In this document: positions 4,253 to 56,059 of the stretch, in pieces | How the letters are laid out: each line of letters starts with the position of its first letter | How positions within the stretch are numbered: position 1 is the first letter of the stretch | DNA from: Ignavibacteriales bacterium | GTDB taxonomy: Bacteria > Bacteroidota > Ignavibacteria > Ignavibacteriales > SURF-24 | DNA length: 64,000 nt | Reading direction: 5' to 3' | NCBI GenBank assembly: GCA_036261625.1 | Contig: DATAKL010000064.1 | Location: 231-64,230 of the forward strand | The notes under the pieces: generated by a model | The model's database searches: none | Seen by the model: the letters and a program-made list of their open reading frames with translations, nothing else | Told to the model about the DNA's origin: nothing | Made by a program: the position numbers and the translations under genes

Positions 4253-4688
4253 CCAATGAAATCTGAGCCTTTAGAACGACGCAGTTAATAAGCCCGACTC
4301 ATAGTCGGGCGAAACCTCAGTAGCCCAGCGTTGCAAGTCCTCCTCCGGGGAGGACGCAGCAACCCTGGGTTAAGGAATCAAAAAATTCCCCTAGCGCCGT
4401 AGGTGCGGCATATAAGATCCCGATGTCTGGCGGATAATGCCCTGATTGGCGGATATTCCCATGGAATGTGAATTAAATTAAATCCCTATCGGATAAACCT
4501 GTTTGAACCCCATGCGTAAAATCTAATATGCCACCGCCTGACGGGGCTTTGGTGGGTTGTGGGGATCCGTTAACCCAGGGTTTTTCATCCCCTCACGGGG
4601 ATCTCAAACCCTGGGCTACTGATGTCTCGTCCTCCTTACGGAGGACTTACTGACAGCGTTATTCTAAATGCTCTGCTTTCATGGAATT
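4253..4688. repeat. Element A: long inverted-repeat structured element (REPIN-like, three hairpins per arm)
   Basis: The two arms are reverse complements in linear blocks, with GTAG at 4320-4323 mirrored by CTAC at 4616-4619. The embedded hairpins differ in sequence but stay self-complementary. Confidence 0.8.
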
Positions 4689-4696
4689 TGTTAAAT

Positions 4697-4722
4697 TAAA
4701 AAGCCCTTTCGGAGAAGGGCTT
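4697..4722 (-). terminator. Rho-independent terminator of the DUF4175 gene
   Basis: On the minus strand, aaagccctt-ctccga-aagggcttt is followed by a TTTTTAATTT run. Confidence 0.6.
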
Positions 4723-4730
4723 TGTTAAAT

Positions 4731-7700
4731 TTATTTGCTGGTGTCCTGCTGAAGCGACTCGTAGTATTTGCGGATCAGGTTTTCGTAATCCTTCGAGTAG
4801 CCTTCCTGAACCGCCCTCATGAGCTCGTCTTTTAAGCGGTTGTGAGATTTCTGAAGGTTTAATTCCGCGGGCGACTTCTGCGCTATCTCCTTGCCCGAGG
4901 TGGATTCCCTTTCCTTTTCAAAATCACGGTCGTTGATCGATTTCTGCGCATCCAATAGCTTCGACAGGATCCTCTCCTGCTTCTGTATCACTTCGTCGTT
5001 CAATTTCTCGGTCTTCATGTCGGAAACCACTTCCTGCATCTCTTTTAAGACGTTGTCCAAATTTGCCGGAAGCTTTTTCGACTCTCCCGACATTTTGCTT
5101 TCCCGGTTTAATTCCTCCAAAGACTTTCTTATCATCTCCTGCTGCTGCGCAAGACGCTGCATCTGGGCCTGCTGCTGAAGCGAAAGCGAACCCTGATTCA
5201 GCTGCTGAGTCATGTTGTTCAGATTCATCTGCTGCTGCCCCATCTTCTGAAGCTGCTGCATCATGGACATCATGCCCGAGCCTGAACCCTGACCGTTTAA
5301 CATGTTTTCCATCGTGTGCTTTAAGATCTCGGCCGATTCATTCAAAGCACTCATGGTCGACTTCTGCTTGTCGGCGGCTGAACTGCCGTTCCTCATCTGA
5401 AGATCGCTCATGGACTGACGCATTCCCAGCTGCGCTTTGCCCAGGGCCTGCCCCAGCTCGGGCGAAATTGCAAATGTCTTCTGCGAAAGCTTGCCTAACT
5501 GTCCCATTATCTTATCCATTCCGCTCTGAAGACTGCTCTGCTTTTTAGCATTTTCATTTAACTGCTGACTGCCGGGATCCATTTTCTGCGTCTGGTTCTT
5601 TAAGGCTTCCTGCTCTTTGGAAAGCGTAAGAAGATTATCCAGAATTTTCCTCATCTCGTTAAATGCCTGGCGCTGGTTCTGCTGCTGCATCTGCTGCTGC
5701 ATCTGCTGCATCTTCTTTTTCATTTGCTTCATGTTCTGAGCCAGGTTCTGCTGCTTCTGCTGAGCCTGCTGCTTCTGCCCCTGCTGAATATTTTCTTGAG
5801 CCTGCTGCGACATCTGATCGTTCTGCTGCTTGTCGAACTCCTCCTGCGCCTGCTTCATCTTGTCCTTCGGCATGTCTTCAAATTCCTGCATCTTTTCCTT
5901 CAGGTCATCCATCTTCTTCTCAAGATCCTTCAGGTCATCCGACATGTCCTTCTGCTTTTCTGAAAGATCCTGCTTCTGATTATTGTCGTTAAGGTTGCTT
6001 TTCTGAGTCTCCTGCTTTAAGTCTTCTGCCCTTTTTGTCAGGTCTTCAGTTCTTTTTAATATCTCATCCATCTTCTGTTCGACCTGTGTTCTCTTTAAGA
6101 GCTTGAGAGTTCTTTCAATGCTCTTCTTGAACATGTCCTCGTCGAACTTCATCTGTTCCATATTCTGCTGAACGTTATCGCGGTTCATCTGCTGCAGGGC
6201 CTGCTGGAATTTCTCCATGGCCTTCTTCATCTCCTCGCTGCTCAGCTGCTGGAAGAGGTTCTGCAGCTCCATGTACTTCTGCAGGGTTTCCTTCGAAAGG
6301 AGGTTATTCTGCTGCATGTCGTTCTGCATCTTGGCCATGTCTTTTCTCACCTCATCAACCTTATGCTCCAGCTCGTCGAACTTCTGCAGGGCCTTGTCGA
6401 GTCTTTCCTTTTCCTGCCAGGTAATGTCTTTTTTGTCCTGCTTTAAGTCCTGGCTCATCTTCTCCAGATTGTCTTTGAGCTTCTGCGCCTCGGTAAGGGT
6501 CTCGGTTAGTTTTTTTTCTGCCGACTCCTGAGTGTTGTCTGCCTGATGGAAGAGTGCATCGAGTGAAGGAACCCGGACGTTAAACAGTGCGGTTTTAGCC
6601 GACTTGGGACCGCTTACGTTATCATTGTCAAAAACCTCGATGTAGTAGGTTACCACGTCCTGAGCCTTAAGCTTTAAGGGGGAGAGGTTCCATATATAAT
6701 TTACATCCTGCTCTTTAGTGCCTCTTTGAATCGGAATTTCAAGCGTCTGGAACTCATCGGAGGGTTTCTGGACCTTTGATGCGCTCAGGCGGTAATGGAC
6801 AAGAAGCCTTGTAAAACCGAAGTCGTCGCTTATTCTGAGTAAGAGTGGTACGCGGTCGTCTTCGGAAAGTGTAACGTCCTTGTTCGGCGTTATAAACTCT
6901 ATAACAGGATAATTATCCGTAAGTGCCTTAATTGAAAAGCTGATCGGGTTATCGTTGTTATGCCCGTCGAGGTCTGTAAGCTGAATGGAATAGTTTACAT
7001 CCTTCTTAATCCTGTAAGTCCCTGATGCATTTTTCCCGCTGACTGAAAGGGGGGCCTCAGTGGAATCGGTAAAGACAAGTCTGGCACCTTTAAGATCTTT
7101 TGTTGAAAGTATGTCGAACCTGATCTGGCTTCCAGGTAAAGATGTTACGTTTCCGTTATCCTTCTGCTCAACTGTCTGCTCCCGGGAGTAGGCAGGAGGC
7201 GTTACGGTTACGTCCATTGCCCTTATTATAGGCTTATCTACAACCGTAATATTGAACTGGCGGCTTTGCACCTCTTCGGCTGAAACGTAATAGGTAAAAG
7301 AGCTCCTGACGGCAGGAATTTCAAAATAGTAAGTTCCGGAAGAATCGGGGTGCAGGTCCCTCTCGCTAAACTCTGCCTGCTCGACATACTTAACTGCAAG
7401 AGAAACATTCTTAGGCTTCTGTCCAAAAACTTTAATTCTTATCTTTACATCCTCTCCCTTTGTTACTTCCTGGTCGCCCGGCTTAACATCGAAAGTAAAT
7501 CTTGCAGGCGGTATGAATTCGCTGCTGAAATTTGTAAGTCTGTATGAAGCGGCTCTAAGGGAAGAAAACGCGGTAAAGAGAATGGCCGCAAAGAGCACAA
7601 CTGCCGAAAGATAGCGGAACATTTTTTTTGTTTTTGTAAAGCTTACGGCTTCGTTAAAGTTTACAGACTTTGTTTTAAGATATACCTGCCGGAATGCTGC

Positions 7701-13926: not shown

Positions 13927-13941
13927 AATATATTCCGGCCT

Positions 13942-14086
13942 GAATAGCCACGGCCTTCAGGCCGTGGGCAGGGAGATCCCCCTCCCCAATTTGGGCTTTA
14001 GCCCCCGATCATCTCCGGAAAATCTGTGGCTAAAGCCGGGAAGATTTTGGGAATATTTCCCCACGGCCTGAAGACCGTGGCTATTC
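13942..14086. repeat. Element B1: ATAG-hairpin doublet with a nested inner hairpin
   Basis: GAATAGccacggcc-ttca-ggccgtgg at 13942-13967 is mirrored by ccacggcc-tgaa-gaccgtggCTATTC at 14061-14086. The inner stem is ggctttagcc (13994-14003) pairing with ggctaaagcc (14028-14037). Confidence 0.8.
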
Positions 14087-14120
14087 ATGGGAAATCGCAA
14101 TATCCGGCACATCCCGGATT

Positions 14121-14192: not shown

Positions 14193-17100
14193 ATGAAGTT
14201 CTTCTCTACTAAGTTAAGCGGAAGCTTAATTGCTCTTATTTTATTATCCACACTCCTGCATGCCGAAGGCGGACAGGCAGACAGAAAAAACCTGCATAAA
14301 ACCTCAGCCGCCACATGGCCTTATGCCTACATGAATATTAATAATATCTCGACTGTTATTTTTGGCGACGGCCAGGCGGACATTAATCCACTTCGTAATG
14401 CAGGCTTTGTCTACCCCAAAGGAAGCAATAAGACTGCTGTATTTGAATCGGGCTTTCTGTGGGGAGGAATAGTAAACAATGAAATTAGAGTTAATGGAAG
14501 TTCATACAGCTCTGGCCTGAAGCCGGGAAAGATCCTGCCCGGGGGAGTGCCCGAGGACCCCAAAAATGCCCGCGTATACCGCGTCAGGAAAGATTACAAA
14601 ACGGCAGACCTCTCTTCTGAAATAAGCGACAATGAGGGTACTGAAAGCGAAATCCGGGAACGCTATGATAATGACTGGAAAGAGTGGCCTGCCCTTGACG
14701 GCGCGCCCTATGAAGACGTTGACCATAACGGAGTCTATGATCCCGCAGTTGATATCCCCGGTGAACCGGGTGCCGACGAGACAATATGGTTTGCGGCCAA
14801 CGACCTGGATGAAGCAGCTTCAAAAAGTCTGTTTGGTTCAAAGCCGATCGGAATTGAAATGCAGTGCACCGTTTATGCTTTCAGGAATCCGGGCATACTA
14901 AGAAACATGATCTTTAAGAGATATAAGCTGATCAATAAAAGCAGCACCACAGTGGACAAAATGTATACTATGGCATGGGGTGATTTTGATATAGGAGACG
15001 CAACAGATGACTTCGAAGGATGCGACACACTCCTTGACCTGGGCTACACTTATAATGCGGTTCCTAAGGACATGCTTTACCAGGATACTCCTCCTGCTGC
15101 CGGCTTTGCAGTCCTGCAGGGACCCGCTGTAAAAGGCTCTCTGTCTGACACGGCATATCTGAATAACAGGAAGCTTCCCGGGATGATGAACCTTCCCATG
15201 ACTTCATTTAGCAATGTTTATGTGGAATTGGCGTGGGAGGAGCCTTCTCCGATAGGCGCGAATGAATACTATAGATTTATGCAGGGTAAACAGGGTTCTA
15301 TTGACTTATTCTTTCCGGTCTTGGATCAATTTGGCGGAGGAACTACCAGATTTCCTTATTCAGGCGATCCTGTTGCGGGAACAGGTTATCTTGACGGCAT
15401 ATTATACCCGAAAGGCGACCGTCGCATGGGCGTAAATTCAGGTCCCTTTACAATGGCTCCCGGCGATACGCAGGAGGTTGTCTTGGCTGAAATTGCCGCC
15501 GGCACCACTCCGGGGGTGAGCAATCTTCAGGCGGTAACACTTCTTAAAAATTCCACAAGCTTTGCCCGGGAGTTTTACCATGAGGGCAGATCAGGCATCA
15601 AATCCATAAATTCCCCGGTTTTGACTGCAGGAGAATATGATAAGGAAATTGTACTTAACTGGGGAGACGACCAGGCCTCAGTAAGTAAAACAGAATCTTT
15701 TGATTTTCTTTCCCACAAATTCGAGGGCTATAATGTCTATCAGCTCCCCTATGCCGGAGCAAAAATAAGCGAGGGAAAAAGAATAGCTGTCTTCGACAGA
15801 ATTGACAGCATAAAAATAATTTACAGTGAAGTCATAAACTGGGATACAGGAGCCCAGGAACGCCTGGCTCAGCAGTACGGAAAAGACTCGGGCATTCAGA
15901 GATTCTTAAGAATAAATGAGGATGCCTACACAAAGTTTCCTCTTATAAACGGAAAGAAGTATTACTTTGCCGTTACGGCATATACCTATAGCCCGAACCT
16001 GGACTTCTCGAATATGGAAAGCGATCCCACATATGTGGAAGTAATCCCCCACACGAACGACCCCGGCGTGGTCTATAATTCCTCTTTCGGTGATACGCTT
16101 CGGGCAAGTCACAATTCAGGTAAAAGCGACGGAGAGGTGATCCCGATTGTGGTTGAACCAGGAAAGCTTACGGGCGACGAGTACAGCGTGGAATTTGAAT
16201 CAACAGACAGCCTGCCCACCTGGAAAGTAGTGGACCTGACAAAGAATAAAACCATTCTTAGCAATCAGACTGCTCATTCGGAAAAGGATGGATACCCTGT
16301 TGCAGATGGAATTCTTTTTAAGGTAATCAGCCATTCTCCCGGGGTGAAAACTGACGATGCGTATACAACTGGCGACAGTTCAAAGTGGGGCTGGAGAATT
16401 CCTGCCGGAAAGCGCAGATTCACATGGAGCGGCGCCAATGGACTGGGACTTGAAGGCTTCCGCGGGGCAATCGGAGCCGGCGCCACATGGCTGGGTTCCT
16501 CAGTTGGTTACAGCAATCTGAAAAACGTTCTTCTTAAACTTGCTGCAACTGACACAAGCGGTAATGCCAGCCCGAATGATTCCAATGTGTCATATGCATA
16601 CAGGTATGTGCGCGCAGCCTCACATGATCCTGCAAGACCTGAATTTGCTCCTTTCATCAAAAACAAATACAACGGCACCTACGGATTTCAGGATTTCACC
16701 AGGAGCTGCCCGCTTGCTGCATACGACTTTGAAGATCCTCAGCATCCGAGAAGACTTGCCGTGGGTTATCTTGAAAACAATAGCTCAAACGGTTTGCTGG
16801 ATGGCAAGTACTGGCCTCCGGAAATGGGCACAGACAACACCGGCGTTACCAGTCCCAGGGAATGGCTCTTTATCTTTGATAAGGCATATAGCGAAACAGA
16901 GGACCAGAGCTTGGAAGGCGACCTCCTGGGTGAAAAACCCTATCCTGTACTTCTTCAATGCACATTCAACAGGAATTCCAACTCCTGGCCCGGGGGAGAT
17001 GAGTTTGAAATTTATGTGAACCATATTTTTACACCTGATGATAAGTTTACTTTCAAGTCCATTGCTCCTTCATTTGACGGACAGTCGGCCAAAGCAGATG

Positions 17101-17417
17101 TGGAGAGGATAAACGTGTTTCCCAATCCCTATTACGGAGCTCTTTTGCATGATGTTAATAACATTCAGAGACTTGTAACATTCAGCCATCTGCCTGTAAA
17201 AGCCACGATCAGAATATTCAACCTGGCAGGACAATTGGTAAGAACAATATATAAGGATACACCGGGGCAGTTTGCCTCGTGGGATCTTCTGAACGAACAT
17301 AATCTCCAGGCAGCAAGCGGATTATATCTGGTACACATTGATATGCCTGATCTGGGGAAAACAAAGATCCTGAAGCTTGCCATAATACAGGAACAGATTG
17401 TGCCTGAGAGGTTTTAA
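14193..17417 (+). CDS. Large secreted protein with a T9SS type-A C-terminal sorting domain (paralogue 1)
   Basis: 1074 aa with a signal peptide and a C-terminal FPNPYY...IRIFNLAGQLVRTIY...ASGLYLVHIDM...KLAIIQ sorting-domain pattern. Paralogous to 17719..20277. Confidence 0.8.
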   Translation: MKFFSTKLSGSLIALILLSTLLHAEGGQADRKNLHKTSAATWPYAYMNINNISTVIFGDGQADINPLRNAGFVYPKGSNKTAVFESGFLWGGIVNNEIRVNGSSYSSGLKPGKILPGGVPEDPKNARVYRVRKDYKTADLSSEISDNEGTESEIRERYDNDWKEWPALDGAPYEDVDHNGVYDPAVDIPGEPGADETIWFAANDLDEAASKSLFGSKPIGIEMQCTVYAFRNPGILRNMIFKRYKLINKSSTTVDKMYTMAWGDFDIGDATDDFEGCDTLLDLGYTYNAVPKDMLYQDTPPAAGFAVLQGPAVKGSLSDTAYLNNRKLPGMMNLPMTSFSNVYVELAWEEPSPIGANEYYRFMQGKQGSIDLFFPVLDQFGGGTTRFPYSGDPVAGTGYLDGILYPKGDRRMGVNSGPFTMAPGDTQEVVLAEIAAGTTPGVSNLQAVTLLKNSTSFAREFYHEGRSGIKSINSPVLTAGEYDKEIVLNWGDDQASVSKTESFDFLSHKFEGYNVYQLPYAGAKISEGKRIAVFDRIDSIKIIYSEVINWDTGAQERLAQQYGKDSGIQRFLRINEDAYTKFPLINGKKYYFAVTAYTYSPNLDFSNMESDPTYVEVIPHTNDPGVVYNSSFGDTLRASHNSGKSDGEVIPIVVEPGKLTGDEYSVEFESTDSLPTWKVVDLTKNKTILSNQTAHSEKDGYPVADGILFKVISHSPGVKTDDAYTTGDSSKWGWRIPAGKRRFTWSGANGLGLEGFRGAIGAGATWLGSSVGYSNLKNVLLKLAATDTSGNASPNDSNVSYAYRYVRAASHDPARPEFAPFIKNKYNGTYGFQDFTRSCPLAAYDFEDPQHPRRLAVGYLENNSSNGLLDGKYWPPEMGTDNTGVTSPREWLFIFDKAYSETEDQSLEGDLLGEKPYPVLLQCTFNRNSNSWPGGDEFEIYVNHIFTPDDKFTFKSIAPSFDGQSAKADVERINVFPNPYYGALLHDVNNIQRLVTFSHLPVKATIRIFNLAGQLVRTIYKDTPGQFASWDLLNEHNLQAASGLYLVHIDMPDLGKTKILKLAIIQEQIVPERF

Positions 17418-17430
17418 TATTTTGATGTTT

Positions 17431-17490
17431 GAATAGCCACGACCTGAATAGCCACGACCTGAATAGCCACGACCTGAATAGCCACGACCT
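17431..17490. repeat. Tandem repeat: 4 x 15 bp (GAATAGCCACGACCT)
   Basis: Four perfect head-to-tail copies. The last one is the 5' half of the left hairpin of element B2. Confidence 0.9.
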
Positions 17491-17616
17491 TCAGGTCGTG
17501 GAGCCATGATAAAAATCTCTCTCGGCTTTAGCCACAGATTTTCCGTGTAGGATCTGGGGCTAAAGCCCGAATATTTTTGAAATCATTAAACCACGACCTG
17601 AAGGTCGTGGCTATTC
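17431..17616. repeat. Element B2: ATAG-hairpin doublet, copy of B1 with compensatory stem changes
   Basis: ccacgacc-ttca-ggtcgtgg (17483-17501) is mirrored by ccacgacc-tgaa-ggtcgtggCTATTC (17591-17616). The inner stem is 17524-17533 pairing with 17558-17567. Confidence 0.8.
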
Positions 17617-17640
17617 ATAGAAAAATTCGCATTTTGCATT

Positions 17641-17718: not shown

Positions 17719-20277
17719 ATGAAGTTTTCCCCTGATAAATTAAGCATAATTGCGCTCCTCTTGTTATCTACAGCGGCTTATGCTGAAGGCGGTTTCAAAG
17801 ACGGAAAAAATCTAAATAAAACCGCATCCAATCCCTGGCCATACACACACATGACCATTAACAATGTAACAACCATAGTTTATGCCAATGGAGTGGCAGA
17901 TGTGGATTCCAACACCTCTGATGGAAAAGCAGGTTTTATTTATCCGAAGGGAACCACTAAGACAGTAGCAAATGGGTCGGGACTCATCTGGGGCGGCATA
18001 GTAAATGAGGAAAAAATAGCTAACGGAAGTAAATATAACTCGGGCTTAAGACCGGGAAAGATCCTGCCCGGGGGAACACCGGAAGATCCGGCAAAAGCCC
18101 GCATTTACAGGGTCAGAAGAGATTATAAGACAGCCAGCCTGTTCACTGAAATAGAGTGCAGTGAGGGTACTGAAAGTGAAGTAAGAAACCGCTATGACAA
18201 GGACTGGAAGGAGTGGCCTGCTTCTGACGGTGCTCCGTATGAAGACGTAAATCACGACGGACAGTATGATCCTGAAATTGATATCCCCGGTGAACCCGGT
18301 GCAGATCAGACTGTCTGGTTTGCGGCAAATGATCTGGATGAGAAAACTTCCAGGGCTTTTTTCGGCTCGAAGCCGATCGGAATAGAAATGCAGTGCACAG
18401 TATTCGCTTATAGAAATCCGGGTTCACTGAAAAATATGATCTTTAAAAGGTATAAGCTGATCAATAAAAGCATTGATACGGTCAAAAACATGTATACAAT
18501 GGTCTGGGGTGATTTTGATATTGGAGACAAGTGGGATGACTTCGCCGGATGCGACTCACTGCTTAATCTGGGATACTGCTATAATGCCCAGTCATCGGAT
18601 AATATTTACGGAAATACTCCGCCGGCCGCTGGTTTTGTACTCCTGCAGGGACCCGCTGTAGAAGGCTCTCTGTCAGACACGGCATATCTGAATGGAAGAA
18701 AAATTCCCGGAATGAAAAACCTTTCCACGACATCAGTGAGCTATCTGATTATGAGGGATGATTGGTGGCAGTTCGAACCTCCCCATACAGGTGACTGGGC
18801 TGCACGCTATCATTACCTTTTTATGCAGGGGTATATGTATTGGATTCTTAGTTATTTTCCTGTTCCTTCGGCATTGGGCGGGGGAGTGACAAAGTTTCCA
18901 TATTCAGGAGACCCCGCTAAGAAGACAGGCTATCTTGACGGCATATTATACCCAAGAGGCGACCGCTGTGTGGGCCTAAATTCCGGTCCTTTTAATTTTG
19001 CCCCGGGCGATACGCAGGAAGTTGTCTTTGCTGAAATTGCCGCCGGCGGCACTCCGGGCGTAGATTATCTTCAGGCGGTAACGCTCCTTAAAGATTATGC
19101 CGGTTTCGTAAAAGATCTTTTCAGGAATGGAAGAGAGTATATGAAGCTTGTTGATCCGCCGGCTTTAAGTGCAGAAGGGTATGACAGGCAGATTGTGCTT
19201 AACTGGGGAGGCGATCAGGCCGGCATAAATAAAACAGAAAATTATAATTTTCTTTCCTATAAGTTCGAGGGTTACAATGTTTATCAGCTCCCTTATCCGG
19301 GGGCAAAAATAAGCGATGGGAAAAGATTAGCTGTCTTTGACATTGATGACAGCATAAAAAACGTTTTCGGCAAAGTAACTGATTGGGATACCGGAGTGGA
19401 AAATATTGTTCCGCAGCAGTTCGGAACGGACTCCGGAATTCAAAGATACCTGAAAATAACGGAGGACGCTTTTACAAATTTTCCCCTTGTAAACGGAAAG
19501 AAGTACTACTATGCTGTTACCGCCTATGCGGTGGACCCGGATAAGGACCCGAGTAACCTTGAAGGCATTCCTGTCATTATTGAAGCAGTCCCTCACACGA
19601 ATGACCCCGGCGTGGTCTACAATTCCTCTTTCGGTGATACGCTTCAGGTAAGCCACACTTCAGGAAAAAGCGGCGGACGGGTAGTTGCGCTTGTAATTGA
19701 GCCCGGAAAACTTACGGGTGATGAGTACAGCGTGGAGTTCGATACCTTAAATGGCCTGACACAATGGAAAGTTATTGATCTTACAAAGAATAAAACTCTG
19801 CTTGGCAGTCAGACTGCTCATAAAGAAAAGGATGGATACCCGATTATCGATGGAATTCTCATTAAGGTAATTAGTCCTTCTTATGACGTAAAACCCGATG
19901 ATAAATTTACATTTAAGTCCACAGCTCCTTCATTTGACGGCCTGTCGGCCAAGATAGATGTGGATAGGATAAACGTTTTTCCTAATCCATATTATGGGGG
20001 TAATTCCCAGGAATTTAGCAGGTATCAGAAATATGTAACATTTAATCATCTGCCGGTTAAAGCTACAATTAGGATATTCAACCTGGCAGGACAGCTTGTA
20101 AGAACAATCTATAAGGATACGCCGGGACAGTTTGCAACGTGGGACTTGTTGAATGAACATAACTTTCAGGCAGCAAGCGGGTTGTACGTGGTATACATTG
20201 ATATGCCCGACCTTGGTAAGACAAAGATCCTCAAGCTTGCAGTTATTCAGGAGCAGATTGTGCCTGAGAGGTATTAA
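17719..20277 (+). CDS. Large secreted protein with a T9SS type-A C-terminal sorting domain (paralogue 2)
   Basis: 852 aa, collinear with paralogue 1 except for a segment of about 220 aa that is absent here. Has a signal peptide and the same C-terminal sorting-domain pattern. Confidence 0.8.
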   Translation: MKFSPDKLSIIALLLLSTAAYAEGGFKDGKNLNKTASNPWPYTHMTINNVTTIVYANGVADVDSNTSDGKAGFIYPKGTTKTVANGSGLIWGGIVNEEKIANGSKYNSGLRPGKILPGGTPEDPAKARIYRVRRDYKTASLFTEIECSEGTESEVRNRYDKDWKEWPASDGAPYEDVNHDGQYDPEIDIPGEPGADQTVWFAANDLDEKTSRAFFGSKPIGIEMQCTVFAYRNPGSLKNMIFKRYKLINKSIDTVKNMYTMVWGDFDIGDKWDDFAGCDSLLNLGYCYNAQSSDNIYGNTPPAAGFVLLQGPAVEGSLSDTAYLNGRKIPGMKNLSTTSVSYLIMRDDWWQFEPPHTGDWAARYHYLFMQGYMYWILSYFPVPSALGGGVTKFPYSGDPAKKTGYLDGILYPRGDRCVGLNSGPFNFAPGDTQEVVFAEIAAGGTPGVDYLQAVTLLKDYAGFVKDLFRNGREYMKLVDPPALSAEGYDRQIVLNWGGDQAGINKTENYNFLSYKFEGYNVYQLPYPGAKISDGKRLAVFDIDDSIKNVFGKVTDWDTGVENIVPQQFGTDSGIQRYLKITEDAFTNFPLVNGKKYYYAVTAYAVDPDKDPSNLEGIPVIIEAVPHTNDPGVVYNSSFGDTLQVSHTSGKSGGRVVALVIEPGKLTGDEYSVEFDTLNGLTQWKVIDLTKNKTLLGSQTAHKEKDGYPIIDGILIKVISPSYDVKPDDKFTFKSTAPSFDGLSAKIDVDRINVFPNPYYGGNSQEFSRYQKYVTFNHLPVKATIRIFNLAGQLVRTIYKDTPGQFATWDLLNEHNFQAASGLYVVYIDMPDLGKTKILKLAVIQEQIVPERY

Positions 20278-20793: not shown

Positions 20794-20839
20794 ATGGTGT
20801 TTTTCGTAGTGGGCATTAATCGGACATCGTTAAAAAAAT

Positions 20840-21185
20840 CATTTCAGTTGTCTTCAAATGCCGCGGACAGCGGCATAGTATCGATAGCCCCGGGTGACAA
20901 ACCCCGGCAGGGGTGCCGGAACCCGGGGTTAGGATACAAAAAAATCAGAGCCGCGGCAGCCGCGACATGTTCCGATTCTACGGCAATTTGCTCAATAAAA
21001 TCAAATCGTCATTTGTGGGGTATCAAATTTGAATCATGGATTCACTCCATTCCAAAACATGGCGCGGCTGACCGCGGCGCATGGGATTGTGGGGGGATTC
21101 CGTGGTCCCGGGGTTCAATCGTCTGCCAGAGGCGGACTCAATCACCCTGGGCTATCAACATGAGGCCGCTGACCACGGCCTTAAA
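20840..21185. repeat. Element C: long inverted-repeat structured element, same family as element A
   Basis: ATAG at 20884-20887 is mirrored by CTAT at 21152-21155. It has the same block order as element A (TAGCCCCGGGT...AACCCGGGGTTAGGATAC; GGGATTGTGGGGGGATTCCG...CCCGGGGTT...CACCCTGGGCTAT) but different stems. Confidence 0.75.
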
Positions 21186-21244
21186 ACCAAAGACATATTA
21201 ATAATTTTATTGACGTTTAGGCCATAAAATATCTGATTTAAATT

Positions 21245-23293
21245 CTATAATTTCTTCTCCATTCTCTTAACCAGCGTAAGGATATCATAAACTGCGGCTT
21301 TCTCGTCATTCTGATTTAAGACCTCCACATGCCAGACAACTACTCCTGCGGCTTCTTCGCCTTCTTTTGTTTCCTTTTCGGACTTCCGCTTGCACGTTAG
21401 CTTCACGTAAATTGTATCTCCCGGCGAGACAGGCTTTATAAACCTCAGGTTCTCCAGACCGTAGTTTGCAATAACCGGCCCCGGCGCAGGATGAACAAAC
21501 AGCCCTGCGGCTGCCGCAATAAGAAAATACCCGTGCACGACACGCTTCTGGAAGTAGGATTCGCCCGCTGCAATCTCATCCATATGAGCATAGAAAAAGT
21601 CGCCGCTTACCCCGGCAAAGTTTATTATGTCAGCTTCGGTTATCGTTCTTCGGTGCGTAACAAGTGTGTCGCCGATTTTAAGCTCATCAAAATATTTCTG
21701 GAACGGGTGAATCCTGTCTTTTATTTCCCGCGCTCCTTCCATCCACACATTGGTTATGTTCGTGAGAGTCGTGGGCGAGCCCTGAAGGGCAACCCTCTGC
21801 ATGTAATGCTTGACTCCTAAAATTCCTCCAAGCTCTTCACCTCCTCCGGCACGCCCCGGACCCCCGTGCACAAGCTGCGGCATGGGAGAGCCGTGACCTG
21901 TGGATTCCTTGGCAGAGTCGCGGTTAATTATCATTACGCGTCCGTGGTAAGGCGCCAGACCAAAGGTCAGCTCCTTTGCTATACTGTCGTCTGCCGTAAA
22001 CACAGAAGCAACAAGGCTTCCTTTACCCATATTCGAAATCTTTACGGCGTCACGCACTGATACATACGGCATGACTGTGTTGACGGGTCCGAATGCTTCA
22101 ACTTCGTGAGGCTCCCTTACACCTTCGGGATTTTTGCAGTAAAGAAGCACGGGATCAAGAAAGGCTCCTTTATCCTTATCTGCTCCAATCAGCTTAAAAT
22201 CCTCCGAGTATCCGTAAACAATTTCCGTTACTTTGCTTAAATCCTTTACTTTTTCCTTTACTTTCTTAAGCTGATTGCGGCTCACCAGGGGACCCATCCT
22301 TACATCCTCGTTTTCAGGGCTGCCGATCTTAACGTCCGAGAGCCTTTTCTTTAAGGCTTTTACAACGTCGGCTGCCTTGTCCAGAGGAACCAGAGTGCGC
22401 CTAATTGCTGTGCACTTCTGCCCGGCCTTTACCGTCATCTCGCGTACCACCTCCTTAATAAACAGCTCAAACTCCGGCATGTCAATCTCTACATCGACAC
22501 CCAGTATGGAGCAGTTGATGGAGTCTGTTTCCATGTTAAAGCGCACTGAATTCTCCACAATCGAGGGGAGCGTCTTAAGCTTTCTTCCCGTCTGGGCAGA
22601 TCCTGTAAAGGATACCACATCCTGGCAGGTAAGATAACTTAAAAGGTCACCCGGATCACCCGATATGAGCTGAAGCGATCCCTCGGGAAAAAGTCCCGAT
22701 TCTATTATCATGCGCACCATTCTTTCGGCTAAGAACATCCCTTCAGGCGCGGGTTTTACAATTGAAGGCATTCCGGCAAGAAACGTTGGTGCAAGTTTCT
22801 CAAGCATTCCCCAGCAGGGAAAGTTGTAAGCATTGATGTGAACGGCTGCGCCCTCCAGGGGAACAAGTACGTGGCGCCCGGCAAAAGTCCCGTTCTTTGA
22901 AAGCGCCTCCGGCTCTCCTTCAACAATAAACGTTTCATTTGAGAGTTCACGCCTCCCCTTGCCGGCATAAGTAAAGAAAGTGCCAATGCCGCCGTCAATA
23001 TCTATCCATGAATCAGTTTTTGTTGCACCTGTATAGACAGAGAGTTTATAAAGCTCGTCTTTCCGGTCAAAAAGATACTTCGCAGCGTTTCTTAGGACTG
23101 ACGCCCTTTCGTGAAATGTCATCTGTCTTATACTTGGGCCCCCGACGTTCCTTGCGTATTCAAGCATCCCCTTAAAGTCGAGTCCTTCGGAACTTATTTC
23201 GGCAACTGTTTCTCCCGTTGCGGCATTAAAAAGGTCCTGAGCCTTCCCGCGCGACTTATACCACCTGCCCATTGCATAGCTTTCAAGTCTCAT
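21245..23293 (-). CDS. paaZ: Bifunctional oxepin-CoA hydrolase / 3-oxo-5,6-dehydrosuberyl-CoA semialdehyde dehydrogenase
   Basis: An aldehyde dehydrogenase domain is followed by a C-terminal MaoC hydratase domain, with long stretches collinear with E. coli PaaZ (FNFPCWGMLEKLAP, KESTGHGSPMPQLVHGGPGRAGGGEELGG). Start ATG 23293 overlaps the paaY stop (ATGA). Confidence 0.9.
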   Translation of the reverse strand: MRLESYAMGRWYKSRGKAQDLFNAATGETVAEISSEGLDFKGMLEYARNVGGPSIRQMTFHERASVLRNAAKYLFDRKDELYKLSVYTGATKTDSWIDIDGGIGTFFTYAGKGRRELSNETFIVEGEPEALSKNGTFAGRHVLVPLEGAAVHINAYNFPCWGMLEKLAPTFLAGMPSIVKPAPEGMFLAERMVRMIIESGLFPEGSLQLISGDPGDLLSYLTCQDVVSFTGSAQTGRKLKTLPSIVENSVRFNMETDSINCSILGVDVEIDMPEFELFIKEVVREMTVKAGQKCTAIRRTLVPLDKAADVVKALKKRLSDVKIGSPENEDVRMGPLVSRNQLKKVKEKVKDLSKVTEIVYGYSEDFKLIGADKDKGAFLDPVLLYCKNPEGVREPHEVEAFGPVNTVMPYVSVRDAVKISNMGKGSLVASVFTADDSIAKELTFGLAPYHGRVMIINRDSAKESTGHGSPMPQLVHGGPGRAGGGEELGGILGVKHYMQRVALQGSPTTLTNITNVWMEGAREIKDRIHPFQKYFDELKIGDTLVTHRRTITEADIINFAGVSGDFFYAHMDEIAAGESYFQKRVVHGYFLIAAAAGLFVHPAPGPVIANYGLENLRFIKPVSPGDTIYVKLTCKRKSEKETKEGEEAAGVVVWHVEVLNQNDEKAAVYDILTLVKRMEKKL

Positions 23294-23886
23294 TTTGTTT
23301 CTTTCCATGTTTTATATATTGCTTTTTGTTTTACCCGGTCCTCCGGAATTTCCCTCAAAGGCTCGCAGGGCTTAAAGGAACTCTGCATCCTTCGCGGGAG
23401 CGCCTTGTAGATCATGGTTCCTTCAGTTTTCCACTCAATCATTTCATCTGTTACATCCTTAATGATCCTTGCAGGGCTCCCAACGGCGAGCTTCCTGTTT
23501 GGGATTTTCATTTCTGCAGGCACAAGCGAAAGAGCCCCTACAATGCACTCATCTCCAACAACGGCGTTATCCATAATTACAGAGTTCATTCCGATAAGAG
23601 TGTTCCGCCCCACAGTGCCGCCGTGAATAATTGCGCCGTGGCCTATATGGGCCATTTCGTGAAGAATTACCGTAACGCCCGGGAACATGTGAATAACGCA
23701 GTTTTCCTGCACGTTGCAGCCGTCCTCAATTATTATTTCACCGAAGTCGCCTCTTATTGCGGCTCCCGGACCGACGTAAACATCCTTTCCGATAATAACG
23801 TTTCCGGTTACCGAGGCGTTGGGATGAATAAAGGCACTTTCGTGGATTACGGGGCGGTAGCCTTCAAATTCAAATATATTGCTCAT
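23290..23886 (-). CDS. paaY: PaaY-like hexapeptide-repeat (gamma-carbonic-anhydrase fold) protein
   Basis: 198 aa with left-handed beta-helix repeats, positioned inside the paa cluster. Confidence 0.8.
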   Translation of the reverse strand: MSNIFEFEGYRPVIHESAFIHPNASVTGNVIIGKDVYVGPGAAIRGDFGEIIIEDGCNVQENCVIHMFPGVTVILHEMAHIGHGAIIHGGTVGRNTLIGMNSVIMDNAVVGDECIVGALSLVPAEMKIPNRKLAVGSPARIIKDVTDEMIEWKTEGTMIYKALPRRMQSSFKPCEPLREIPEDRVKQKAIYKTWKETK

Positions 23887-23894
23887 AGTATTTT

Positions 23895-25127
23895 CTATAA
23901 ATTCATGTTTTCAATAATTACAGCCATTCCCTGGCCAACTCCTATGCACATGGTGCAGATGGCGTAGCGCTTGCCTTTTTCCAAAAGCTCGTACATTGCC
24001 GTGGTAATAAGTCTTGCACCCGACATTCCAAGAGGATGCCCCAGTGCTATGGCGCCCCCATTCGGGTTAAGCCTCGGGTCGTTATCCTCAAGCTTAAGTT
24101 CCCTCAGGCATGCAAGCGCCTGGGAGGCAAAAGCTTCATTAAGTTCAATTACAGATATTTCATCAAAACTGAGAGCGCTTCTTTTAAGCGCCTCCAGTGT
24201 AGCCCTTACGGGCCCGATGCCCATTATCCTGGGCTCAACACCAACAACGGCTGAAGTTACAATGCGGGCCCGGGGCTTGAGATTAAATTCCCTTACAGCG
24301 TTTTCCGATGCCAGTAAGAGCGCACAGGCCCCGTCGTTTATGCCGGAAGAGTTTCCGGCTGTTACGGTGCCCATGCCGTCTTTTCTGAATGCAGGTTTAA
24401 GTTTGCCCAGTATTTCTGTTGTGGTATTCGGCCTTATGAATTCATCGCTGCCGAATATTAAAGGAGCACCTTTCGCCTGGGGGACTTCAACCTCCGTAAT
24501 TTCTTTCTTAAAGCGCCCTCTTTTTTGTGCCTCCGTAGCTTTCATCTGCGAGCGGTATGCAAATAGGTCCTGATCCTCCCGGCTGATGGAATAGATTTCA
24601 GCCAGGTTTTCTGCAGTCTCGCCCATGGACTCTATTCCGTACATCGCTTTCATTTTAGGATTTACAAATCTCCAGCCCAGACTTGTATCATAAATCTCCG
24701 CGTGAGTTGAAAAGGGGGTTGGGGCTTTTGAAAGAGCAAACGGCGCGCGAGTCATATTCTCCACTCCGCCTGCTATGTATAAGTCCCCGTCGCCAAGGCG
24801 TATTGCACGTGCGGCTTCAACTACGGCACTCATGCCCGAGGCGCACAGGCGGTTTACAGTCATACCCGGCACGGTATAGGGAAGTCCCGCCAATAGAAGA
24901 GCCATTCGGGCCACATTCCTGTTATCCTCTCCTGCCTGATTGGCGCATCCCAATATGACGTCGCTTACGCGTGAGGTGTCAGCGCCCGGGTTTCTTTCCG
25001 CTACCTTCCTTACTACGTGTGCGGCCATGTCATCCGCCCTTACGTTCGAGAGGCTTCCGGCATGTTTCCCGATCGGCGTCCTGATTGCATCAATTATATA
25101 TGCTTCTTTTATAATATGTTCTTTCAT
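23895..25127 (-). CDS. paaJ: 3-oxoadipyl-CoA / acetyl-CoA C-acyltransferase (thiolase)
   Basis: 410 aa with the thiolase active-site contexts (VNRLCASGM, NEAFA, GGAIALGHPLGMSG, CIGVGQG), inside the paa cluster. Confidence 0.85.
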   Translation of the reverse strand: MKEHIIKEAYIIDAIRTPIGKHAGSLSNVRADDMAAHVVRKVAERNPGADTSRVSDVILGCANQAGEDNRNVARMALLLAGLPYTVPGMTVNRLCASGMSAVVEAARAIRLGDGDLYIAGGVENMTRAPFALSKAPTPFSTHAEIYDTSLGWRFVNPKMKAMYGIESMGETAENLAEIYSISREDQDLFAYRSQMKATEAQKRGRFKKEITEVEVPQAKGAPLIFGSDEFIRPNTTTEILGKLKPAFRKDGMGTVTAGNSSGINDGACALLLASENAVREFNLKPRARIVTSAVVGVEPRIMGIGPVRATLEALKRSALSFDEISVIELNEAFASQALACLRELKLEDNDPRLNPNGGAIALGHPLGMSGARLITTAMYELLEKGKRYAICTMCIGVGQGMAVIIENMNL

Positions 25128-25136
25128 TTTATCTTT

Positions 25137-26303
25137 CTATGGATAAAAGCGCTCATTATTTTTTACCATTTTCTTAAGCAAAGGTGAAGGCCTGTAGCGG
25201 TCCTCACCATACTCCTGCTGAAGCTCTGTAAGCCTGGCAAGAATTCTTTCCGGACCTATATCATCTGCCCATTTAAGAAGTCCCAAAGGGTAGTTGACCC
25301 CTTTCATCATTGCAAGATCTATATCCTCCCTGGAAGCTATATTCATATGCAGGGCATCTACAGCCTCATTGATCAGCATGGAAATAATACGAAACCAAAT
25401 TTCACGCGCAAGTTCAATGTCTTTAACCGGTTCCTCATTTAATGCTTCAGGAGAGTAGTCATAAAATCCCATTCCGGATTTTCTTCCTAAGCGTCCAGCC
25501 TCAACCATCCTTTTCTGAGTAATTGAAGGCCTGTAGCGCGAGTCGTAATAAAGACCTTCAAAGACGCTCTCGGTTACCTTGTAGTTAATGTCGTTGCCTA
25601 TAAGGTCCATCAGTTCAAAGGGACCCATTCTGAAGCCCCCGATTACCTTCATTGCCCAGTCGATTGTAGGCACTAGGGCAATATTTTCCTCCAGTATTCT
25701 TAAAGCCTCGCCGTAGAAAGGCCTCGCAATACGGTTTACAATAAAGCCCGGTGTGTCTTTGGCAGTAACGGGAGTTTTATTCCAGCTGTGGGTAATTTCA
25801 CGCATCCTGTTTACTGTCTCCGGTGAAGACTCAAGTCCGGGAATAATTTCCACCAGGGGCATCAGGTATGCGGGATTGAAAAAATGCATTCCCGCAACTT
25901 TTGAAGGATCCATTGCTGCTGCGGCAATTGAGGTTATGGACAAGGATGAAGTATTTGTGGCAAAAAGGGCATCTTTTCCAAGTAACATTTCCACTTCAGT
26001 AAAAACTTTTCTCTTTACCGCGAGCTCTTCAACTACAGCTTCAATAACAAGATCTGACTTAGCCAGATCTGTCATTTCACAACTGAAAGTGATGCGTTCT
26101 TTAAGATTCCTGACATCGCTTTCGCTGAAGCGCCCCTTTTCCTTCTGGCGGTCAATGAGGCGGTAGATTTCCTCTTTGGCACTGTCGAGAACATGAGGGC
26201 TGATCTCATAAAGAGTGGTTTTGCATTTGTTCAAGGCGGCAGTATAGGCAATGCTGCGTCCCATAGTGCCGCCTCCGATAATTCCTATAGAAAGGTATTT
26301 CAA
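25137..26303 (-). CDS. paaH: 3-hydroxyacyl-CoA dehydrogenase
   Basis: 388 aa with an N-terminal GGGTMG Rossmann motif and a 3HCDH C-terminal domain, inside the paa cluster. Confidence 0.8.
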   Translation of the reverse strand: MKYLSIGIIGGGTMGRSIAYTAALNKCKTTLYEISPHVLDSAKEEIYRLIDRQKEKGRFSESDVRNLKERITFSCEMTDLAKSDLVIEAVVEELAVKRKVFTEVEMLLGKDALFATNTSSLSITSIAAAAMDPSKVAGMHFFNPAYLMPLVEIIPGLESSPETVNRMREITHSWNKTPVTAKDTPGFIVNRIARPFYGEALRILEENIALVPTIDWAMKVIGGFRMGPFELMDLIGNDINYKVTESVFEGLYYDSRYRPSITQKRMVEAGRLGRKSGMGFYDYSPEALNEEPVKDIELAREIWFRIISMLINEAVDALHMNIASREDIDLAMMKGVNYPLGLLKWADDIGPERILARLTELQQEYGEDRYRPSPLLKKMVKNNERFYP

Positions 26304-26332
26304 TATGCCCCTCGGTTATTGAAAAAGTTTTC

Positions 26333-27304: not shown

Positions 27305-27349
27305 ATTTTCCTCTCAACTAAAGTTTTGAAAATTATTTGCCTGAAATAT

Positions 27350-28138: not shown

Positions 28139-28160
28139 TTAAGGCAGTCTCGGTGATTAT

Positions 28161-28652: not shown

Positions 28653-28683
28653 TTCATCGTATCCTTAATCTTTTTTTTTATAA

Positions 28684-32986: not shown

Positions 32987-32988
32987 GG

Positions 32989-33138
32989 TACGTTCGACGT
33001 TCAACGTTCGACGTTCAACGGGAAGACAGGACCGGGTTAGGGGATTTAGATATTAATAAAATTTAACTGTAGTATTGCCGAAGAAGAGTTTTTGCCCCTG
33101 CTTTCAAACGTCGAACGTTGAACGTTGAACGTTGAACC
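32989..33138. repeat. Element D: inverted repeat built from tandem CGTTCGACGTTCAA / CGTTGAA units
   Basis: The left block (32990-33020) and right block (33107-33138) are reverse-complementary: gacgttcaacgttcgacg vs cgtcgaacgttgaacgtt. The centre contains GGGTTAGGGGATTTAG. Confidence 0.7.
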
Positions 33139-33225
33139 TTCATCCTTGGACTTTGCCCTCGTAAATCCTGCCGGATTTTCTTATATTTACATTCTTTAAT
33201 AACTAAAATTTAAGCGAAGAGTTTT

Positions 33226-41449: not shown

Positions 41450-41545
41450 ATAAAGGAGAAATAAGGCTCCTTAAAGCCCTATGTTAACCCTGTCTGCCTA
41501 TATGTATTTGGTTCATTATTTTAGAAAACGGGCTGTAACAGATAT

Positions 41546-41662
41546 AAAACCACTGACGTGGTTTTTGGGTGTGGGGGATTTCCTTACCCAGGGTTCCATC
41601 ATCCCGACACTTGTCGGGATTTGAAACCCTGGGCTACAGACATAGAACCACTCCGTGGTTCG
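41546..41662. repeat. Element E: solo arm of the element A/C family
   Basis: aaaaccac-TGAC-gtggtttt, then TTGGGTGTGGGGGATTTCCTTACCCAGGGTT, an inner hairpin atcccgac-actt-gtcgggat, AAACCCTGGGCTAC, and aaccac-tcc-gtggtt. This matches the right arms of elements A and C block for block. Confidence 0.75.
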
Positions 41663-41713
41663 GAGGTTATAATCCTCAAATTCCTCTAAATCAATTCTCT
41701 TGAATACCCGCAC

Positions 41714-47791: not shown

Positions 47792-47817
47792 ACATTTTGC
47801 GAATTTTTTACATCGCC

Positions 47818-47956
47818 GTAGGGGCGAGCGGCGCTCGCCCGGGACGGGAAAAAATTATAACTCACAAATTGAAATTTCCGAATGTTTATGGGTAAACCAC
47901 ATTGCATGGGTGTATTCGTAATGTCAAACGGATGGGCGAGCGCCGCTCGCCCCTAC
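47818..47956. repeat. Element F: GTAG-hairpin doublet
   Basis: GTAG-gggcgagc-ggc-gctcgccc (47818-47840) is mirrored by gggcgagc-gcc-gctcgccc-CTAC (47934-47956). About 93 nt of AT-richer centre, between convergent genes. Confidence 0.8.
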
Positions 47957-47983
47957 GATGATGATGAGCTTTGAATTATTATT

Positions 47984-53877: not shown

Positions 53878-53901
53878 AACATGCCTGTATACCCGCAGCA
53901 C

Positions 53902-55350: not shown

Positions 55351-55362
55351 GCTGTCGAGACT

Positions 55363-55866
55363 TTAATAGACTCCCTCGCCCGAGTGATGCCCCACAACAT
55401 CGCCCCTGGGGTCGATAAGTACAACCGTAGGCCACGCGTTTGCGCCGTAGCTGGTCCAGATCTTAAAATCCTTGTCGTTTACAACCGGGTGTTCAATGTC
55501 GTAGCGGAGAATTGCCTGACGTATATTGCCTGTTTCCTGTTCGGAAAGGAATTTAGCCGAGTGGACGCCAATAACGGCAAGTTCACCGGGGTATTTGGCT
55601 TCAAGCTTTTTAAGGTCGGGTATAATGTGCATGCAGTTAATGCAGCAGAATGTCCAGAAGTCCAGGAGCACAACTTTTCCCCTCAGATCTGAGAGTTTAA
55701 TGGGGTGATCCACGTTAAGCCAGTCCAGTCCATCCGGAAATTCAGGGGCATCGCCGTTGGTATACCTGTTAGCCATAGCGTAATTTCCTTTAATATCTTT
55801 GTCTGCGCAGCCGGTAAAGCTGAATATAAGCAGAACAATGAATGCCGTTAAAGACCTCATTTTCAT
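55363..55866 (-). CDS. Thioredoxin-like (TlpA/redoxin) lipoprotein (N-terminal part of a split Trx-NHL gene)
   Basis: 167 aa with an FTGC lipobox and a [11 protein letters not shown] CxxC redox motif. It ends at a TAA that is in frame with the downstream NHL ORF. Confidence 0.75.
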
Positions 55867-55928
55867 GTCTTTCTTTTTCTGCCTGATTTATAATTCAACA
55901 AGCACCGGGGGGATTTAGTTTCGGAAGG

Positions 55929-56059
55929 GTAGGAGGTCTGGCAGGATGTCAGGAACCACTTCCTGACATCCTTCGCGAGCCATTCTGGCGAGCGGGATTA
56001 TTTTCATGGGATGGGGCACATGGAATGGCGCCAGGAAATGGTTCCTGGCGCCGCACTAT
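55929..56059. repeat. Element G: GTAG/CTAT hairpin doublet
   Basis: GTAG at 55929 is followed by ggatgtcaggaa-ccac-ttcctgacatcc (55944-55971). This is mirrored by ggcgccaggaa-atgg-ttcctggcgcc (56027-56052) and CTAT (56056-56059), which overlaps the stop of the upstream gene. Confidence 0.7.

Follow-up and report, generated by a model that had tools for sequence, protein, structure and literature searches.

Arrays of GC-rich hairpins that stand in inverted pairs behind bacterial genes raise the question of what kind of repeat they represent and which enzyme they serve. We addressed this question for a stretch of 64,000 nucleotides from an Ignavibacteriales bacterium (assembly GCA_036261625.1, contig DATAKL010000064.1, positions 231 to 64,230), the whole of which is referred to below as the window. 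The window has a G+C content of 45.5%, and its alanyl-tRNA synthetase (AlaRS) is 90% identical to that of one Ignavibacteria metagenome-assembled genome (MAG) and about 70% identical to those of other Ignavibacteria. A previous sequence-only reading had placed eight intergenic loci of the window in a single superfamily resembling repetitive extragenic palindromic (REP) sequences and their doublets (REPINs), a type of element that it associated with REP-associated tyrosine transposases (RAYTs). The textbook example of a host keeping a transposase together with its miniature repeats over the long term is provided by REP/REPIN-RAYT systems. To our knowledge, they are known almost only from Proteobacteria and from class-2 RAYTs.

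All eight inverted, GC-rich hairpin arrangements are present in the sequence where they had been placed. The single superfamily was rejected: BLAST of each locus links B1 and B2 only, patterns and a covariance model link A1, A2 and A3 only, and C, D and E are singletons. For family A (A1, A2 and A3), the REP/REPIN-like reading is supported. We consider it probable (about 0.7) that family A is a gene-less derivative of a REPtron-like unit, in which two inverted compound arms surround one gene for a Y1 transposase of subclass 1.2.

Architecture of family A

Family A consists of five arms of about 135 nt, distributed over two doublets of 350–410 bp (A1 and A2) and one solo arm (A3). Scores in bits refer to R1, a covariance model built on 37 arms, and z-scores to the folding of the arm or locus as single-stranded DNA.

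4271–4679, no strand: A1, family-A doublet, delimited by an imperfect terminal inverted repeat, TTTAGAAcgACGC...GCGTtaTTCTAAA; no gene inside
4280–4418, + strand: left arm of A1; R1 74.3 bits; DNA fold z = -5.75
4521–4658, - strand: right arm of A1; R1 83.3 bits; DNA fold z = -5.58
20847–21202, no strand: A2, family-A doublet of a distinct subfamily with ATAG; arms R1 77.0 and 75.2 bits
20848–20975, + strand: left arm of A2; R1 77.0 bits; DNA fold z = -4.37
21052–21191, - strand: right arm of A2; R1 75.2 bits; DNA fold z = -0.80; central hairpin degraded
41537–41671, - strand: A3, family-A solo arm; R1 104.9 bits; DNA fold z = -6.38; best-preserved three-hairpin arm

In A1 and A2 the two arms face each other with their tags outside, and A3 is a single arm, as had been described from the sequence alone. 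Read with the tag first, an arm begins with the outer end TTTAGAATTACGCA, followed by 5–6 nt, TAA and a small hairpin (hp3). After hp3 come about 9 nt, the tetranucleotide RTAG and a long hairpin, CCCNGGG(T)...(A)CCCNGGG, with a variable inner stem. A linker with CCCCCACA at its end leads to the other small hairpin (hp1), and GACAT-like bases complete the arm. The left arm of A1 follows this order with hp3 GCCCGACT/AGTCGGGC, GTAG and the long hairpin CCCAGCG..CCCTGGG with the inner stem GTCCTCC/GGAGGAC, after which an A-run replaces CCCCACA ahead of hp1. The right arm has hp3 GTCCTCC/GGAGGAC, GTAG, the long hairpin CCCAGGGTT..AACCCTGGG with the inner stem ATCCCC/GGGGAT, then CCCCACAA and hp1. 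The sequence-only reading had taken GTAG as the start of a palindrome; in family A it primarily ends a unit of hairpin, 9 nt and RTAG, and it stands at the foot of the palindrome as well.

All five arms fit the pattern TAGCCCNGSGT-N16-40-ACCCNGGG, and three R arms fit a longer pattern, with none expected in either case from shuffles. The R1 scores of the five arms range from 74 to 105 bits; at E <= 0.01 the sole further match in the window is a partial one of 19.7 bits, to the palindromic hairpin of the right arm of A1 on the opposite strand. As single-stranded DNA, all arms but the right arm of A2 fold into the three predicted hairpins (z from -4.4 to -6.4). That arm (z = -0.8) is also the only exception among all loci of the window, where z otherwise lies between -4.4 and -8.5.

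The loci had been placed 0–100 nt after a stop codon, three of them between convergent genes. The three convergent sites and the positions are correct, save that A1 lies about 440 nt from the upstream stop and 43 nt from the convergent one. Terminator-like hairpins with T-runs bracket A1 (4174–4222 and 4698–4725), one per convergent gene, and A1 therefore lies between two terminators and is not itself one. A mechanical open reading frame (ORF) of 135 aa (20794–21201) overlaps doublet A2 and is probably spurious.

A Y1 transposase gene beside family-A arms

Loci retrieved from relatives are denoted L002–L029 and L110–L119. A Y1 gene, encoding an HUH transposase of 150–168 aa, is adjoined by family-A arms in all six relatives examined (L002, L012, L110, L111, L112 and L113). 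In four of these (L002, L012, L110 and L111) the arms flank the gene on both sides in inverted orientation, the REPtron layout of a gene between its own inverted repeats, while L112 and L113, which are contigs of about 1 kb, contain one arm each beside the gene. The two inverted arms of L002 and L012 enclose an ORF of 166–167 aa that encodes the Y1 HUH transposase (Pfam Y1_Tnp, E = 1e-26), and the ends of A1 agree with the ends of these Y1-carrying units. A doublet in L010 surrounds a short Y1 remnant. In L111 a single Y1 copy was found on a 452-kb contig, surrounded by housekeeping genes. Y1_Tnp genes flanked by the hairpins of the window, the association that the sequence-only reading had pointed to, were found in relatives for family-A arms only. 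The alignment of the centre of A1 to the gene flanks of L002 and L110 covers the arms only, and an origin of A1 by internal deletion is therefore not demonstrated.

The arm-associated Y1 proteins are IS200-like and are not canonical RAYTs. They pass the NCBIfam model transpos_IS200 (75–82 bits, cutoff 55) and fail the RAYT model REP_Tyr_transpos (33–34 bits, cutoff 80), and the closest solved structures are those of ISDra2 and IS608 TnpA (matches in PDB). An alignment of 13 members contains the invariant residues D54, H55, H57, W94, Q95, Y114, Q118, H121 and H122. The corresponding motifs, DHVH, WQ and YIxNQExHH (Y-x3-Q-x2-HH), match TnpAY1 subclass 1.2 as defined in Table 1 of Quentin et al. 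2018 (PMC6006769), whose protein features (DH[IV]H, WQ, Y-x3-Q-x2-HH, a length of about 150 aa and a short conserved C-terminal domain) are all present. The Y-x3-NP motif that marks class-2 RAYTs is replaced here by YIxNQExHH. The arms themselves are inverted repeats of at least 130 nt, unlike the ends of IS200/IS605 elements, which consist of same-strand subterminal hairpins without terminal inverted repeats.

The closest Y1 clade is 59–91% identical to the query, and the four further members that were retrieved all have model-positive arms adjoining. The query Y1 has over 7,900 matching proteins in the database; the best-scoring ones share its motifs and come mainly from Bacteroidota and Ignavibacteria, and the protein clusters listed mostly comprise one to a few members and contigs. 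A hidden Markov model search over about 0.8 Mb of retrieved loci revealed no Y1 gene beyond those already known. Subclass 1.2 has been described as low-copy, without IS200-type ends and without REPs (Quentin et al. 2018, PMC6006769). Because the family-A arms adjoin a Y1 gene of a subclass listed without REPs, family A looks like a previously undescribed REP/REPIN-type system. An incomplete search of the later literature found no description of REPs for this subclass.

Simpler arms across subclass 1.2

A wider set of 80 metagenome loci with more distant subclass-1.2 genes (48–59% identity) was compared. The strict family-A pattern and the long hairpin occur in none of the 80, and an initial reading of this result as a refutation was dropped once comparison of the flanks revealed simpler units. 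Most of these genes are flanked, in inverted orientation, by a hairpin with a 5-bp stem followed by GACATGTTT(G/A)TAG, where GACATGTTT is the consensus of the 9-nt spacer between the small hairpin and RTAG. There are usually two such units per side, 25–35 nt apart. In the 80 loci there are 133 cases in which RTAG begins at position 10 after a GC-rich hairpin, versus about 6 at other, neighbouring positions. Of 66 loci, 49 have a unit that faces the gene on one side or both, 25 of them on both; the density of units is 2.1 per kb within 350 nt of the gene and 0.26 per kb elsewhere, an 8-fold difference. The family-A model matches simple arms of 85–90 nt in 36 of the 80 loci (65 matches), and 46 of these matches are oriented towards the gene at a distance of at most 300 nt, upstream ones on the + strand and downstream ones on the - strand. 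The same arms stand beside the gene in two genome assemblies, those of Paenimyroides aestuarii (CP102382.1) and of a member of the Chitinophagaceae (chromosome-scale).

These simple arms share the plan of family A, and the family-A arm is therefore a simple two-hairpin arm whose spacer has been expanded into the long RTAG-foot hairpin. The units and model matches found beside the genes (in 49 of 66 and 36 of 80 loci, respectively) depart from the absence of REPs and IS200-type ends given for subclass 1.2. The protein still falls inside the subclass, and the published description of it as lacking REPs appears to be incomplete.

Covariation of the stems

The compensatory stem variants quoted in the sequence-only reading are found in the sequence, and the proposed covariation of stems is borne out by a larger sample of 61 arms, drawn from loci labelled as many phyla and aligned to the model. 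The covariation score of these arms is 0.266, versus 0.092 for column shuffles (none of 500 reaches 0.266) and 0.06–0.09 for slid controls; fitting the alignment to the structure favours covariation, a bias that the slid controls carry as well. The centre pair of CCCNGGG is G-C in 30 arms, A-U in 16 and C-G in 10, and the inner pairs of hp3 switch among C-G, G-C, A-U and U-A and are almost never unpaired. Pairing on the modelled strand is overwhelmingly Watson-Crick. G-T pairs (37) are not more frequent than A-C pairs (65), and the strand test therefore gives no pointer to an RNA of the modelled strand and indicates no clear strand. Rfam 15 produced no match in the window at gathering score, and matches at E <= 10 in A1 are at chance level only.

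Turnover at orthologous sites

Orthologous regions of relatives align to the window at about 75–82% nucleotide identity, and the elements at these sites differ. The A2 site, between two convergent genes, is occupied by a complete B-type doublet in L115 and L116. The A1 site of L118 contains an A2-like arm together with simple units of CTACAAACAATTC and a hairpin. At the D site of L114 the whole intergenic segment is absent and the two genes lie 3 nt apart. The segment 35885–41708 (5.8 kb, with three genes of 401, 892 and 379 aa and its right edge at A3) corresponds to about 500 bp in L114, where a truncated arm in the opposite orientation is found at the junction.

A further A2-type doublet exists outside these orthologous sites: A2 aligns end to end with L013 1051–1384 (71.5% over 365 nt) in a different genomic context. 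The element that carries this doublet, at L013 982–1420, has the ends TTTGCGCGTCAAC...GTTGACGCGCAAA, and similar ends occur in L024. It lies within the inner hairpin of another family-A arm, so that elements nest in one another.

Proposed mechanism and alternative explanations

A mechanism for family A can be proposed by analogy with IS608/ISDra2 TnpA and E. coli TnpA-REP (PMC3333891, PMC3479197, PMC8266576). A Y1 enzyme encoded elsewhere in the genome would bind the hairpins in single-stranded DNA, and the adjacent linear motif may guide cutting and rejoining at or near RTAG. Arms and doublets could in this way be copied or moved between intergenic sites, with gene-less arms mobilised in trans. 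The compensatory stem changes would then be due to selection on a foldable DNA hairpin rather than on its sequence.

More tentatively, at somewhat less than even odds, subclass 1.2 may supply the enzyme for a third REP/REPIN-type partnership, of independent origin and with members in Bacteroidota, Ignavibacteria and further phyla. The unit recognised would consist of a small hairpin, 9 nt and RTAG, and one clade would have elaborated the three-hairpin arm of about 135 nt, with the blocks TAGCCCNGGG and CCCCCACA conserved across phyla.

Several points weigh against a REPtron-like origin of family A. The window, the only part of this genome that was searched, contains no Y1 gene, in agreement with the earlier statement that no RAYT is present there; for the window's own sample (SRR13766244), the close homologues of the Y1 gene came from other samples or their sample is not on record. 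The inverted arms differ from the IS200/IS605 layout, so the chemistry of IS608 may be an inexact model for them. The long central hairpin, with its RTAG foot and three basal G-C pairs, resembles the REPs of subclass 2.4 and might serve a different enzyme. Most genomes matched by the strict family-A pattern showed only 1–2 copies. Several related contigs carry clearly wrong MAG labels, and the breadth across phyla rests on the remaining labels. For family A, neither a target-site signature nor a clean empty-versus-filled pair of sites was found.

The resemblance to subclass 2.4 leads to an alternative in which the arms are composite and serve two enzymes, the units of hairpin, 9 nt and RTAG belonging to the subclass-1.2 Y1 and the CCCNGGG hairpin being the REP of a class-2 RAYT (e.g. 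of subclass 2.4) that has lodged next to RTAG. REPs of subclass 2.4 are long hairpins with three basal G-C pairs and are known from Bacteroidetes and scattered phyla (Quentin et al. 2018, PMC6006769), the long hairpin is missing from all 80 of the more distant subclass-1.2 loci, and plain RTAG-foot hairpins exist in this genome (B and D). However, the long-hairpin matches examined (the window and L002–L029) all lie within complete or truncated arms and none stands alone, and the order hp3, RTAG, long hairpin, CCCCACA, hp1 is kept in nearly all strict-pattern stretches from many phyla. The long hairpin also lies beside all six genes of the closest Y1 clade, and no second Y1 gene was found in the 0.8 Mb of retrieved loci. 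We regard two enzymes as unlikely on this evidence. The possibility that the arms are miniature inverted-repeat transposable elements (MITEs) derived from an insertion sequence of the DDE type, one with terminal inverted repeats of about 130 bp, would account for arms that are long imperfect terminal inverted repeats and for element ends, TTTAGAA...TTCTAAA, that are themselves inverted. It is nevertheless very improbable: a Y1 transposase is the only gene seen between arms, present in four loci and reduced to a remnant in a fifth; the ends of A1 show no direct duplication of the target; and within one element the stem sequences of the two arms diverge although each arm retains its hairpins, which a double-strand binding site does not need.

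The remaining alternative is that the loci specify structured RNAs from gene 3′ ends, such as terminators, mRNA stabilisers or small RNAs, with the Y1 association being secondary. All loci lie just downstream of a stop codon, the stems covary, and it has been argued in print that many REPs function in transcripts. Yet the doublets present one arm in both orientations, the hairpins are not followed by T-runs, Rfam offers no match beyond chance even at E <= 10, and the almost purely Watson-Crick pairing, with fewer G-T than A-C pairs, lacks an RNA signature of the modelled strand. The arms moreover flank a transposase gene in inverted orientation, and close relatives swap elements at orthologous sites. 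A structured-RNA reading is thus disfavoured and, in our estimate, improbable, slightly more so than a pair of enzymes.

Comparison with known systems

The family-A system shares with REP/REPIN-RAYT systems (E. coli TnpA-REP and its bacterial interspersed mosaic elements, and Group 2 and 3 systems of Pseudomonas) a Y1 HUH gene between inverted hairpin repeats. Gene-less inverted doublets and solo units that are intergenic, mostly after stop codons and between convergent genes, are likewise common to both, as are the RTAG tetranucleotide, compensatory stem changes and the co-residence of several repeat families. The two differ in the enzyme, which is IS200-like here (Y-Q-HH, subclass 1.2) and of class 2 (Y-NP) in the known systems, and in the tag, which lies 9 nt 3′ of the small hairpin here and at the foot in the known systems. 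The arms here are three-hairpin structures of about 135 nt in doublets of 350–410 bp, as opposed to about 100 bp, and the host belongs to the Ignavibacteria rather than the Proteobacteria. Only Group 2 and 3 RAYTs are stated to have REPINs (bioRxiv 10.1101/2021.07.10.451892). In the survey of Quentin et al. 2018 (PMC6006769), subclasses 2.2, 2.4, 2.5, 2.7 and 2.8 have REPs, 2.6 and 3 have atypical structures, and no REPs are given for 1.2.

IS200/IS605 elements (IS608, ISDra2) and their gene-less derivatives, the palindrome-associated transposable elements, resemble the system in the protein, which passes the IS200 model, keeps HUH and Y-Q and can be aligned with the structures of ISDra2 and IS608. 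The arrangement of a hairpin and a conserved tetranucleotide about 10 nt apart also recalls the IS608 right end. In contrast, IS200/IS605 ends have the same orientation on one strand, whereas the family-A ends are inverted, as in a REPtron; the units here also lack tnpB, the protein has a C-terminal extension with HH, and the gene of L111 is the sole copy found on its contig. TIRtrons (Di Nocera et al. 2013) similarly consist of a tyrosine transposase gene (TIRYT) between long inverted repeats, some of which have internal self-complementary tracts; they have moderately abundant gene-less copies and have been reported from Acidobacteria and other groups. TIRYTs, however, are mostly of subclass 2.1 with a helix-turn-helix C-terminal domain, and the motif that they share, GGGGWSAS, is not the CCCCCACA/TGTGGGGG block of family A.

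If the proposed reading is true, the REP/REPIN phenomenon would be extended to an IS200-like subclass and the published description of subclass 1.2 as having no REPs would be corrected. It would also provide a defined DNA substrate, the hairpin, 9 nt and RTAG (hairpin plus GACATGTTTGTAG), for the enzyme, and Paenimyroides aestuarii would be a likely culturable host for experiments. On the practical side, the arms break metagenome assemblies and occur on contigs in MAGs with evidently wrong phylum labels.

Families B, C, D and E

The remaining loci are as follows.

13941–14087, no strand: B1, family-B doublet; inverted repeat 96%; DNA fold z = -8.52
17430–17617, no strand: B2, family-B doublet; 15-mer TGAATAGCCACGACC four times at the left end
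32985–33151, no strand: locus C, inverted pair of 7-nt periodic arrays (ACGTTCR)n with an 88-nt centre
47817–47957, no strand: locus D, GTAG-foot doublet; inverted repeat 93–100%; DNA fold z = -8.03
55944–56052, no strand: locus E, two inverted long hairpins (55944–55973 and 56027–56052)

Family B arms have the general form TGAATAG followed by CCACGNNC-loop-GNNCGTGG, in which the NN bases stay complementary (GG/CC, GA/TC or AG/CT). In B1 the arms read TGAATAG plus CCACGGCC-ttca-GGCCGTGG with ATAG outside, and a central hairpin, GGCTTTAGCC/GGCTAAAGCC, lies between them. The B1 site of relatives contains a half-deleted copy, while L115 and L116 have a full B doublet at another site, the PaaZ intergenic region. 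Given its presence at a second, unrelated site, family B is dispersed. B1 and B2 are each located upstream of tandem paralogous genes (14193–17417 and 17719–20277; 64% amino acid identity, 83% over the C-terminal 127 aa; no match in Pfam), and their DNA similarity extends to the start codons. The relatives have one such gene (L115–L117) or none (L118 and L119). Independent insertion of B1 and B2 was therefore ruled out: B2 was copied with the promoter region and the downstream gene, and is a by-product of tandem gene duplication. The 15-mer at the left end of B2, which comprises the tag and the left half of the hairpin, is repeated in tandem at 17430–17489; a related 15-mer occurs once or twice at the B1-orthologous site of L115 and L117, the copy number ranging from 1 to 4 between lineages.

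Locus D has arms of GTAG plus GGGCGAGCG-g-CGCTCGCCC, 93 nt apart with GTAG outside, and finds no match in any relative's locus examined. B and D resemble the GTAG-tagged REP dimers ("HH dimers") of Di Nocera et al. 2013 in having two RTAG-foot hairpins 90–95 nt apart with the tag outside. In contrast to those dimers, B uses ATAG, and that survey, whose GTAG repeats came from Proteobacteria, Cyanobacteria, Chloroflexi and the Planctomycetes-Verrucomicrobia-Chlamydiae group, reported none from Bacteroidetes or Chlorobi. A REPIN-like reading of B and D is plausible.

Locus C had been singled out as the outlier among the eight, correctly, and does not belong to the GTAG type. The block GGGTTAGG(G)GAT that it was said to share with other loci is too short for significance, and the model does not match C. 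Relatives have different, shorter inverted 7-mer arrays at this site, each in its own version. Arrays with a 7-nt period (ACGTTCR or GGTTCAA-like) lie near hairpin elements in three genomes (window 32990–33020 and 33107–33137; L002 5200–5241; L114 13040–13065). The two hairpins of locus E share the core CAGGAAnnnnTTCCTG and differ in their outer stems, and the locus E hairpin recurs at 93.5% identity beside a non-homologous gene (L013 767–797). The 9-mer TCTGGCAGG on both sides of locus E (55937–55945 and 56077–56085) may be a target-site duplication or due to chance.

RTAG at the foot of a hairpin is common to the long hairpin of A, to B and to D, and is the only support for a wider "grammar" across loci. 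The window contains 14 perfect GC-rich hairpins with a stem of at least 7, and 5 of them have RTAG or CTAY at the foot, where our own estimate, not computed by a tool, of the number expected by chance is about 0.4. GT[AG]G occupies the palindrome foot in the long central hairpin of A and in D, B has ATAG, and the units basic to the Y1 subclass carry RTAG 9 nt 3′ of their hairpin. C and E do not fit this grammar and are separate repeat types. The REPIN-type reading proposed for all eight loci accordingly stands for family A, with its adjoining Y1 gene in six of six relatives, but not for C and E, and B2 is a duplicate.

Distribution and sample labels

A strict right-arm pattern, run once against species-representative genomes, matched 28 stretches, 27 of which were judged by eye to share the whole architecture. 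The MAGs concerned are labelled Acidobacteriota, Planctomycetota, Verrucomicrobiota, Myxococcota, Desulfuromonadaceae, Bacteroidia and Ignavibacteriales. Two bins of PRJNA951521 contain repeat families of the window: MAG164, labelled "Syntrophomonadaceae" (L002, L013, L015, L018, L024 and L026), in which there are 7 strict-pattern matches, and MAG223, labelled "Acidobacteriota" (L012, L014, L017 and L023). The PaaZ proteins under both labels are 86% identical to PaaZ of the window, and PaaZ and AlaRS proteins under labels of this type are 74–86% identical to the Ignavibacteria proteins of the window. Probably, these two MAGs carry wrong phylum labels or are mixed bins.

A contig of identical sequence in a public assembly breaks off inside A1 and inside B1, which is the expected behaviour of repeats. 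The cluster for phenylacetate degradation (paa), at 21245–31489 of the window and including PaaZ, keeps its gene order in all relatives examined.

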